DNA from: Desulfovibrio litoralis DSM 11393
GTDB lineage: Bacteria; Desulfobacterota; Desulfovibrionia; Desulfovibrionales; Desulfovibrionaceae
Direction of reading: 5' to 3'
Assembly (NCBI RefSeq): GCF_900143255.1
Contig: NZ_FRDI01000003.1
Coordinates: forward strand, 274,641-298,640
Length of the DNA stretch: 24,000 bases
Every line of letters begins with the position of its first letter. Position 1 is the stretch's first letter. The notes under the pieces were generated by a model. It was given only the letters and a program-made list of their open reading frames with translations, was not told the origin of the DNA and did no database searches. The position numbers and the translations under genes were made by a program. This document shows, piece after piece, positions 20,185 to 22,077 of this stretch.

Positions 20185-22077
20185 ATGTCATATTTTAAAA
20201 AATTCCCCGAAAAAAATGATAATCAAAGTTCTGACAAGCATAAAAACAAGCCTCATGATAACGAGAACTTTTCCGATACAAACAAAAATGAATATAAACA
20301 TCACGAAAAAAGAAAGTCATCTTTTATAAAGCGTGAAGGTGGCTCATATAACAACACCGAAAATCAAGAAAACGCCGAAACTGAAGTTTTTAAACCCAAT
20401 AATCAGATGACAGAAGGTCTGATTGAGCTTGACCTTGATTTAATGAAACTTTTAGTGCGTCGTAGCAAGCTCTTAAACAAAGCACAACAAAGACTAAGCG
20501 GACAAGCCTTTAGCTCTTTCGAAAAAGAAGTGCGTCAGGCTTTTGAAAGCAACGCTCAAAAATTTAGCCGAGATCCTAAATTTACACGTCAATTTTTTAA
20601 CTTAATACAAGACCTTAAATTATTACACTCTGCCAATGATGCCAAAGAGGCTTATAAGCTTTCTCCGGCTCGCAAGCCTGTTGAACTTAACCTTAACGCC
20701 ACAGCGGAACAACTACTTGCAAACATCTATATTTTCCTTGGGGCTTATACTATGAGCCCTATAGAAATCGCCAACCTGCCTCAAACCGAAGCAAGCGAGA
20801 GCCTTATCCAAGCTCTGAATATGGGCAATGCAAATATTTATAGAAACAATAATACCTTAATTAATGCGACCAAAGAAAAGTTAAACTTCTTTGATAAAAG
20901 CTTATTTGCCGGCGAACAACTTTTTAACTTCTTTTTACTAAGCTTTGTAAATACATTCAATATCGGGCGTTGTCGCATAAACACCGGAAACCAACTAAAA
21001 AATATTGACCTTAAATCCTTGCGAAGCTTTTTACCACAGCTTGGAGCAAGACTTGCACATCAAATACCGGGTTCAAGTTCTGCCCCTGTGTTTATCGAAA
21101 GTTCCGGCGTGTTTGACTCAACATTGTGCCTAAACGGAACTTTATTTGAAAACATTCAGGCAAACGAACGTGAAGAGTTTGTATTTAGCTTTTGTGCCGC
21201 TCTGTTTACCGCATTGAGTTCCACTAAACGCAGCTTTTCCATTACTACGGAAAACTTAGACTCTTCTTGTCAAAAAGGCTTTAATAAAGCCTCTAAGCTT
21301 GTCTTACCCTTTTTAAGCCAATTAAATGTTCACTCTGAGTTATCGGAAAATAATTTAAGCCTAAACGCTGAAAAAATCGACTTAACTCAAAAAGTCAAAA
21401 TAAATTCCGACCTAAATTTAAGTGCTTCTTTCTTGGCACTAAGCCTTGCACACGGCGGAATAGTCAACTTAAACGATTTTTATGCCGACTATAAACTAAA
21501 AGAAAACAATATTTCGGTTTTTTTCAATAAAATCGGAATAGAACTTGAACAAAACGCAAATTGTTTAAGTGCCAAACGCAAAACAGATTGGCAAATAAAA
21601 AACTTTGAACAACTTGAAATTAATGACTTTAATTCTTTGAACACAAAATTTAAACCGATTGCCTTGGCTTTATTGGCAACTTTGGTGTTAAAAGGTGTTT
21701 CCAAAATAACGCTCAATTTAAGCGAAGAAAGCGAAGAATTTAAACAAGTTAGCTCTGAATTTTTAAGTTTATTAAGATTAACTATTGAAGATAATTGTTT
21801 AAAAAAACAAAATGAAGTAAGCGAAACGGAAAATCAAACGGCGTTTATCAGCCCAAACCCTTGGTGGATTTTAGCATTAGCTGTTGCCTCATTACAATAT
21901 CTTGGTCAATTTAAAGGGCAAAAAGCCTCCTTACAATTAGTTAACCCAAAAGATATTGAACAAATATACCCACAATATTGGTCTTTATTTAACGCCTTAC
22001 CAAACCCGTCTTTGAAAAACACCCAAAATGTAAGTCAAGCCGATGAACCGACAAAACGTCGTTTTATCGCAGAATAA
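20185..22077 (+). CDS. 630-aa protein: basic low-complexity N-tail, chorismate-mutase-II-like helical segment, EPSP-synthase-fold domain lacking canonical catalytic residues
   Basis: By-eye colinearity with E. coli AroA was found at six segments:
- LNLNATAEQLLANIYIFLG vs INLPGSKSVSNRALLLAAL
- LFAGEQLFNFFLLSF vs LFLGNAGTAMRPLAAAL
- INTGNQLKNIDLKSLRSFLPQLGARL vs [26 protein letters not shown]
- SDLNLSASFLALSLAHGG vs GDASSASYFLAAAAIKGG
- NPWWILALAVASL vs NDHRMAMCFSLVAL
- NPKDIEQIYPQYW vs DPKCTAKTFPDYF

Residues ~78-150 resemble the PheA chorismate mutase domain (ELDLDLMKLLVRRSKLL...FEKEVRQAF...FTRQFFNLIQDL). Confidence 0.7.
   Translation: MSYFKKFPEKNDNQSSDKHKNKPHDNENFSDTNKNEYKHHEKRKSSFIKREGGSYNNTENQENAETEVFKPNNQMTEGLIELDLDLMKLLVRRSKLLNKAQQRLSGQAFSSFEKEVRQAFESNAQKFSRDPKFTRQFFNLIQDLKLLHSANDAKEAYKLSPARKPVELNLNATAEQLLANIYIFLGAYTMSPIEIANLPQTEASESLIQALNMGNANIYRNNNTLINATKEKLNFFDKSLFAGEQLFNFFLLSFVNTFNIGRCRINTGNQLKNIDLKSLRSFLPQLGARLAHQIPGSSSAPVFIESSGVFDSTLCLNGTLFENIQANEREEFVFSFCAALFTALSSTKRSFSITTENLDSSCQKGFNKASKLVLPFLSQLNVHSELSENNLSLNAEKIDLTQKVKINSDLNLSASFLALSLAHGGIVNLNDFYADYKLKENNISVFFNKIGIELEQNANCLSAKRKTDWQIKNFEQLEINDFNSLNTKFKPIALALLATLVLKGVSKITLNLSEESEEFKQVSSEFLSLLRLTIEDNCLKKQNEVSETENQTAFISPNPWWILALAVASLQYLGQFKGQKASLQLVNPKDIEQIYPQYWSLFNALPNPSLKNTQNVSQADEPTKRRFIAE

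Follow-up and report, generated by a model that had tools for sequence, protein, structure and literature searches.

A Desulfovibrionales protein family that joins a chorismate-mutase-like domain to an EPSP-synthase fold is a probable pseudoenzyme encoded next to a small coiled-coil protein

In dimers of the AroQ type of chorismate mutase (CM), the active-site residue R11 is supplied in trans, and AroQ domains that are fused to 3-deoxy-D-arabino-heptulosonate-7-phosphate synthase (DAHPS) serve as allosteric sensors of prephenate or chorismate. In the wider fold class that includes the 5-enolpyruvylshikimate-3-phosphate (EPSP) synthase (EPSPS) AroA as well as MurA, Rcl1 is, to our knowledge, the sole precedent for a pseudoenzyme. 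Here, we describe a gene of the sulfate reducer Desulfovibrio litoralis DSM 11393 in which an AroQ-like module is joined to an EPSPS-like module. It lies in a window, i.e. the whole stretch of 24,000 nucleotides (nt) that was analysed, that spans positions 274,641-298,640 of contig NZ_FRDI01000003.1 (assembly GCF_900143255.1) on the forward strand. We suggest, with a probability of roughly 60%, that the encoded protein is a pseudoenzyme. It would descend from an AroQ-type chorismate mutase fused to a full-length EPSPS, would have lost both activities and would have been kept for a non-catalytic role in cooperation with a small coiled-coil protein whose gene lies directly downstream.

The protein starts with a disordered tail, which leads into a three-helix domain like that of AroQ chorismate mutases; the EPSP-synthase fold that follows is complete, with both lobes, and a short tail forms the C-terminus (Table 1). 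Its sequence is 100% identical to that of a D. litoralis "hypothetical protein", and its UniRef name is "3-phosphoshikimate 1-carboxyvinyltransferase". The initial annotation, which was made by eye, had claimed an intact open reading frame (ORF) of 630 amino acids (aa) whose C-terminal ~460 aa are colinear with EPSPS. The ORF is uninterrupted from ATG to stop, and the colinearity is borne out by profile comparisons. Pfam gives no match for the D. litoralis protein itself, and against TIGR01356 (aroA) it scores 21.4 bits (other members, 30-41 bits) with a cut-off of 287.25; among family members, the Pfam EPSP_synthase model is matched in 46 of 86. A profile of six sequences matched EPSPS chains in the PDB over their full length with E = 1.4e-17, while MurA sequences had E >0.5, and a family profile of 155 sequences scored 90.7 bits against residues 11-417 of E. 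coli AroA, for which the reference sequence was confirmed to be identical to 1g6s. An AlphaFold model based on a 106-sequence alignment had a pLDDT of 86.3 and a pTM of 0.84. When this model was compared with the PDB using Foldseek, as had been proposed in the initial annotation for AroA and MurA, the top matches were all EPSPS (best match 2bjb, E = 1.2e-19, TM 0.79), and MurA chains ranked below every EPSPS chain (E ~1e-15 vs 1e-19). EPSPS (AroA), and not MurA, is the closest relative by structure as well as by sequence, and the model is most like the open, unliganded form of EPSPS.

By contrast, the residues with which AroA binds shikimate-3-phosphate (S3P) and phosphoenolpyruvate (PEP) and performs catalysis are gone. 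To count residues, E. coli AroA was aligned to the family hidden Markov model (HMM) with 155 representatives, and none of the 18 positions considered (K22 to K411) is kept as a family feature. In D. litoralis, K22/S23/R27 correspond to Q176/L177/I181, N94/G96/T97/R100 to E244/L246/F247/F250, R124 to I274, S169/S170/Q171 to V333/F334/S335, R344 to F519, D384/H385/R386 to N558/P559/W560 and K411 to Q593, and K340 falls into a gap. The catalytic acid/base residues D313 and E341 are replaced by T487 and S516, and at these positions the family mostly has P/A and is variable or gapped. Among the S3P-site residues, S197 alone stays a Ser (S361) in D. litoralis, and none is conserved across the 155 members; at the positions of the PEP/glyphosate site (N94, G96, R100, R124, R344, H385, R386 and K411), the family consensus is acidic or hydrophobic. 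The only AroA residues that persist in the family are K122, D242 and P414, which are structural. The loss of S3P- and PEP-binding residues had been listed in the initial annotation from sequence blocks aligned by eye. For GNAGTAMR to GEQLFNFF, KERP to KNID and AKTFP to EQIYP, the register is exact in the profile alignment; for the block with K22, S23 and R27 and for the block in which DHR had been read as PWW, the loss stands but the register was off by three positions and by one position, respectively. In neither register is there a basic residue, and the profile alignment brings no canonical Lys, Arg or His back into place. The replacement of S169, S170, Q171, D313, K340, E341 and R344 extends the earlier list, and the losses are common to the family and not peculiar to the D. 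litoralis gene.

The old cleft has also lost its conservation and its charge. The 21 ligand-contact columns have a mean entropy of 2.90 vs 2.48 in the remaining AroA-aligned columns, a value that random sets of columns reach in 1.4% of cases (p ~0.014). Over 23 cleft positions, E. coli AroA has nine basic and two acidic residues, while the family has on average 2.2 and 4.3, and D. litoralis has none and two; the net charge of the cleft is negative in 127 of the 155 members. This lower conservation together with the change from a basic to a neutral or acidic cleft argues that the former EPSPS active site has been released from constraint and not re-tooled. The suggestion in the initial annotation that the fold might perform new chemistry is, as far as the old active site is concerned, unlikely because these positions are the least conserved of the fold.

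The N-terminal module tells a similar but less complete story. Of 86 members, 37 match the Pfam CM_2 model (best E = 2.4e-8). Between the family HMM and E. coli chorismate mutase (EcCM), the score is 25 bits, and hhalign puts the probability for this pair at 85% (E = 6e-6). Thus, the resemblance to a type II chorismate mutase that the initial annotation had seen is real at the family level; for the D. litoralis protein alone, it lies below detection in Pfam, with no CM_2 match. In the AlphaFold model, the three AroQ helices are at residues 71-103, 107-124 and 131-142. Of the EcCM active-site residues, R28 has an Arg equivalent in 153 of 155 members (R93 in D. litoralis) and E52 a Glu equivalent in 152 (E113). 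The position of K39 is K/R in 110 members and L104 in D. litoralis, whereas an Arg at the position of R11 is found in 30 members only; the absence of an R11 equivalent from the D. litoralis protein, as previously claimed, is confirmed with T76 at this position. R51, S84 and Q88 are not kept family-wide, and D. litoralis has F112, K145 and a gap, respectively. Accordingly half dismantled as it appears in the alignment, the chorismate-mutase site is unlikely to support catalysis, especially in D. litoralis, while residual ligand binding by this module is conceivable. Judged by its residues, the protein cannot be an EPSPS and is very unlikely to be a chorismate mutase.

The gene is nevertheless maintained. 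It is uninterrupted in 24 of 24 distinct loci, with no stop codon or frameshift. We calculated the ratio of nonsynonymous to synonymous substitution rates (dN/dS) among three Nitratidesulfovibrio orthologues, a set to which D. litoralis, with its nearest relative at 36% identity, does not belong. The values were 0.27-0.34 (0.30-0.34 for the whole gene and 0.27-0.31 for the AroA-like module). The CM-like module had 0.25-0.47 and the small partner described below 0.24-0.43, compared to 0.11-0.16 for an adjacent aminotransferase that served as a control. Both modules of the family gene and the partner are under purifying selection, which is looser than that on the neighbouring working enzyme. An exhaustive profile search (clusters at 50% identity, E <= 1e-30) recovered at least 232 clusters, nearly all of them full length (530-660 aa) and with both modules; a word-indexed search with the family profile had recovered only six already-known proteins, which made the exhaustive search, together with a central query, necessary. 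The view in the initial annotation that the protein is maintained and not decaying is in line with these data. In its alignment, the family fits the operational definition of a pseudoenzyme, i.e. a homologue of enzymes that is without their catalytic residues and is maintained by selection.

All named members are from Desulfovibrionales, including Nitratidesulfovibrio (with D. vulgaris Miyazaki, UniRef B8DS73), Oleidesulfovibrio, Desulfocurvibacter africanus, Desulfobaculum, Humidesulfovibrio, Bilophila, Mailhella and D. cuneatus. In RefSeq, UniProt and IMG, their names are "chorismate mutase", "3-phosphoshikimate 1-carboxyvinyltransferase", "EPSPS-like protein" or "hypothetical". The initial annotation could not match the protein to a described family; while it is correct that there is no curated model, the protein belongs to a large Desulfovibrionales family whose entries in RefSeq and UniProt carry misleading enzyme names. 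In the searchable literature, using locus tags, apr/qmo neighbourhoods and EPSPS-like pseudoenzymes as entry points, we found no description of the family and no described pseudoenzyme of the EPSPS fold, and the tags DVU0843-0845, Dde_1107/1108 and B8DS73 do not occur in any paper or supplement that was searchable. The D. litoralis protein is a divergent member with a mean identity to the family of 25%, and it departs from near-invariant Gly/Trp positions at N215, T267, D431 and F120. Because its frame is already open from position 20104 and because the closest relative also has an MS-x-F start and a tail of comparable length, we hold the annotated start and the long N-terminal tail to be real, and the Lys/His/Asn-rich tail reported in the initial annotation is therefore a genuine part of the protein. 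As a defining feature of the family, the tail was rejected because its length varies from 0 to 485 aa over the 155 members and reaches at least 30 aa in only 68; some members have Arg/Asp/Glu-rich N-terminal extensions of up to ~480 aa.

The second element of the proposed system is the gene for a small coiled-coil protein, which in the window starts after a gap of 9 nt from the stop codon of the family gene. No terminator was found between the two genes in the window, and they are predicted to be co-transcribed. A homologous ORF of 72-93 aa lies directly 3' of the family gene, often overlapping its stop codon, in 16 of 24 distinct loci from all major clades, and the motif E(D/K)PxxGIFxAxEIHxxKQ...L is conserved. 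Searches of Pfam, NCBIfam and the PDB gave no family match for this partner, the Pfam and PDB matches being generic coiled coils. The possibility that the partner is a diverged CM-like helix was rejected (hhalign probability 0.8%). In D. vulgaris Hildenborough, the place expected for the partner gene is occupied by DVU0842, which encodes a hypothetical protein of 76 aa and is thus a candidate for the partner gene; it is listed as non-essential and as tolerating insertions in tables from random-barcode transposon sequencing (RB-TnSeq). In the P0150 clade (L017 7751-8008 (+), L018, L019), the coiled-coil partner is missing downstream, and an extra stand-alone CM-like ORF of 85 aa overlaps the start of the family gene. 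The CM-like domain may pair with the product of this ORF instead; the presence of the ORF fits helix-bundle pairing and thus hints at dimerisation.

What is conserved in the family suggests how such a protein could work. The invariant residues are R93, E113, R289, P301, E305 and P596. Near-invariance extends to N587, W599, L605 and a C-terminal [RK]-R-R-[IV] motif, whose two central Arg are kept in 146 and 150 of the 155 members. R289 aligns to AroA K139 and E305 to approximately position 154. These positions belong to adjacent strands of a hairpin outside the cleft, and their location suggests a surface for interactions. In the mechanism that we propose, the CM-like helices would serve for dimerisation and/or provide a residual pocket (R93/E113) for a carboxylate ligand, while the EPSPS shell would be a rigid platform. 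The conserved surface elements, i.e. the R289/E305 beta-hairpin, the C-terminal NPG...P.FW..N.LP segment and the RRR-I tail, would bind the partner or other proteins. A role as ligand sensor or scaffold, which the initial annotation had put forward, is likewise an inference.

As to the process that is served, the gene neighbourhoods give a single recurring clue, namely sat/aprBA-qmoABC beside the family gene in other Desulfovibrionales. Like the partner gene, this adjacency is not part of the initial annotation. In 13 loci (D. africanus, Nitratidesulfovibrio, D. cuneatus, gut and termite metagenome-assembled genomes, and the P0080 and P0150 clades), sat and/or aprBA-qmoABC directly adjoin the family gene, usually in divergent orientation. 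They are missing in 10 loci with enough flank, including the window and its closest relative. In D. africanus (L029 95-13761), qmoAB-aprAB-usp-x-sat lie divergent on one side of the family gene and the partner, an aconitase and a PpiD-like gene on the other, and in another locus (L023) sat is directly upstream of the family gene in the same direction; these arrangements may be ancestral. The other recurring neighbours, i.e. an aminotransferase, the aconitase with the PpiD-like gene and an AMP-ligase, are each limited to certain clades. An upstream neighbour listed as "Cluster 1" was rejected as a spurious antisense ORF over aprA.

Several observations weigh against an inactive fusion that works with a small partner. 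The partner gene is not adjacent in eight of 24 loci; ~70% of members combine R28 and E52 with a K/R at position K39, and a weak chorismate-mutase-type or related pericyclic activity may therefore persist in the family; and an Arg at the S23 position in 37% and at the N26 position in 61% of members could represent "migrated" basic residues, although D. litoralis has neither. Moreover, no canonical AroA was found in 0.4 Mb of fetched family loci, the D. litoralis genome not having been subjected to a dedicated aroA search. The persisting residues would also fit a neo-functionalised enzyme that performs another reaction in the residual CM-like pocket (R93, E113 and mostly K/R at K39) or at a new R289/E305 site and employs the EPSPS shell structurally or to bind the substrate. 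Indeed, only a few, specific polar residues are invariant (R93, E113, R289 and E305), those retained from the chorismate mutase are the ones that, as established for the E. coli enzyme by its structures, contact chorismate at its enolpyruvyl carboxylate, ether oxygen and 4-OH, and some loci have an aminotransferase and one clade a type II dehydroquinase nearby. We regard such an enzyme as unlikely, if a serious contender, since D. litoralis is without the K39 equivalent, 81% of members lack the R11 that AroQ dimers supply in trans, R289 and E305 are on surface strands instead of in the cleft, dN/dS is 2-3x that of the adjacent enzyme, and the neighbours other than the partner gene vary between clades. 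A genuine bifunctional chorismate mutase/EPSPS, which is what the names in RefSeq, UniProt and IMG imply and to which the weak PF00275, PF01817 and TIGR01356 matches could be taken to point, is extremely improbable: the S3P/PEP ligands and both catalytic acid/base residues are replaced throughout the 155 representatives, the scores are 7-14x under the equivalog cut-off, and a shikimate operon with DVU0461/DVU0462 exists separately in D. vulgaris Hildenborough, where DVU0463 is presumably aroA. Even less is to be said for a decaying pseudogene or a chance ORF, a practically negligible explanation that could draw on the AT-rich DNA and on the deviations of D. litoralis from near-invariant positions mentioned above. 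The GC content of the window is 31-45%, and an open frame of 1.9 kb, here in DNA with ~34% GC, is far from chance; full-length homologues without stop codons or frameshifts in all examined genomes, the dN/dS of ~0.3 and the confident AlphaFold model all speak against decay.

A more specific form of the proposed pseudoenzyme, and one that is compatible with it, is an accessory or regulatory factor of dissimilatory sulfate activation and reduction that, with its partner, would contribute to the assembly, stabilisation or regulation of Sat, AprBA and QmoABC or act on their expression. The mostly divergent adjacency to sat and/or aprBA-qmoABC occurs across deep branches of the family, and conserved divergent gene pairs often reflect regulatory coupling. 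However, we consider this role quite unlikely, given the 10 well-flanked loci without this arrangement and the lack of a recognisable DNA-binding domain in the protein. In addition, the ApsA/ApsB pull-down supplements do not list the protein under the locus tags that would be expected, a weak point because the tag itself is unconfirmed, and the synteny could be inherited inertia inside one order. Going one step further, the pseudoenzyme and its ~80-aa partner could form a dedicated Sat/AprBA/Qmo module in which the CM-like pocket might couple energy metabolism to a small carboxylate metabolite, an idea that we hold to be distinctly improbable.

Table 1. Coordinates of the gene, its partner and the conserved upstream features (positions are those of the window unless a locus is given; L030 is the locus of the closest relative)
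Feature	Position	Strand	Basis and remarks
Whole ORF, 630 aa, ATG to stop	20185-22077	+	ORF listing; exact database match; Desulfovibrionales family, CM-like module fused to EPSPS-like module
N-terminal Lys/His/Asn-rich disordered tail, aa 1-71	20185-20397	+	pLDDT <50 for residues 1-66
AroQ (CM_2)-like three-helix domain, aa 72-142	20398-20610	+	Model helices; CM_2 matches; EcCM alignment; R93, E113 and D83 near-invariant
Complete EPSP-synthase-fold module, aa 156-606	20650-22002	+	Aligned to AroA residues ~1-417; S3P/PEP-binding and catalytic residues all replaced
C-terminal tail, aa 607-630, ending in KRRFIAE, and stop codon	22003-22077	+	Near-invariant [RK]-R-R-[IV] motif of the family; low pLDDT
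Partner gene, 79 aa, coiled coil	22087-22326	+	Motif E(D/K)PxxGIFxAxEIHxxKQ; homologous ORF downstream in 16/24 loci
Sigma-54 enhancer-binding protein, 369 aa	18688-19797; L030 30-1085	-	Starts at the AAA+ domain, without receiver or sensor; PspF-like architecture
Conserved intergenic element, ~30 nt	19919-19950 ATGTCAAATTTATGACGTCATGTCAAGAGTTT; L030 1347-1378 TTGTCAAATTCCTGACGTCTTGTCAAGAGATT		Contains TGTCA-N6-TGACG

In the window, a gene for a sigma-54 activator is divergent from the family gene, and it is also found upstream of the gene of the closest relative (36% identity). The conserved element between the genes (Table 1) matches yGTCA-N6-TGACr, the motif predicted for the autoregulated FlrA/FleQ-like activator DVU2894 (PMC4641369), and for this reason is probably the activator's own site and serves the divergent activator gene. 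Control of the family gene by sigma-54 was rejected; upstream of the gene there is no -24/-12 promoter, with matches at chance level. Directly 3' of the partner gene, the window has a gene for a class I S-adenosylmethionine-dependent methyltransferase (UbiE/COQ5-like; 22361-23029 (+)), after which frr and pyrH lie on the other strand; the methyltransferase gene is not conserved beside the family gene in any other locus. Further away, a 1257-aa tetratricopeptide repeat (TPR) protein (14829-18602 (-)) has Gln-rich low-complexity tandem repeats, especially at 16938-17030 and 17783-17918, which account for a local anomaly in GC content and GC skew at 17-18 kb. A homologue of the ferredoxin-thioredoxin reductase catalytic subunit (11595-12020 (+)) beside an upstream glutaredoxin-like gene (L020 1242-1848), followed by lgt, is unrelated.

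New in these findings is a probable pseudoenzyme of a fold for which we found no described precedent. It is order-wide and mis-annotated, and its genomic context offers a lead to sulfate respiration that can be tested. As its members are named as shikimate enzymes, reconstructions of the shikimate pathway are inflated, and sequence-based predictions of glyphosate sensitivity could be misled for gut Desulfovibrionaceae (Bilophila, Mailhella, Desulfovibrio). The gene pair is a core, order-wide feature of an environmentally and medically important group, and its repeated adjacency to sulfate-reduction genes provides a concrete target in tractable strains. In evolutionary terms, the family would be a clean case of two fused enzymes that lost their activities together and retained the fold. 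If the pair were indeed a Sat/AprBA/Qmo module, a well-studied respiratory pathway would gain a component that had so far been missing, and the enolpyruvyl-transferase fold its first functional pseudoenzyme.

Compared to the known systems, the protein is a composite. With AroA (PF00275/TIGR01356), it shares the two-lobed inside-out alpha/beta-barrel, with colinearity that extends from the first strand up to the P-x-(F/Y/W) motif at the C-terminus; it differs from AroA in that the substrate-binding and catalytic residues are gone and the cleft is neither basic nor conserved, in the fused N-terminal CM-like domain and the conserved RRR-I tail at the C-terminus, and in a score of 21 bits vs the cut-off of 287. 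With the AroQ chorismate mutases (PF01817), it shares the three-helix topology with a long first helix and near-invariant equivalents of R28, E52 and D18, while R11, R51, S84 and Q88 are missing family-wide and K39 in D. litoralis. As in the regulatory CM-DAHPS fusions, a CM-like domain is joined to another shikimate-pathway fold; however, the joined domain itself appears to be catalytically dead and, consequently, there would be no enzyme to regulate in cis. Finally, Rcl1, an inactive paralogue of RNA 3'-phosphate cyclase with an EPT/RTPC-like fold, is a binding or scaffold pseudoenzyme, as we suggest for the protein described here. This likeness is an analogy only, because Rcl1 belongs to a different branch of the superfamily and no sequence relationship was found.

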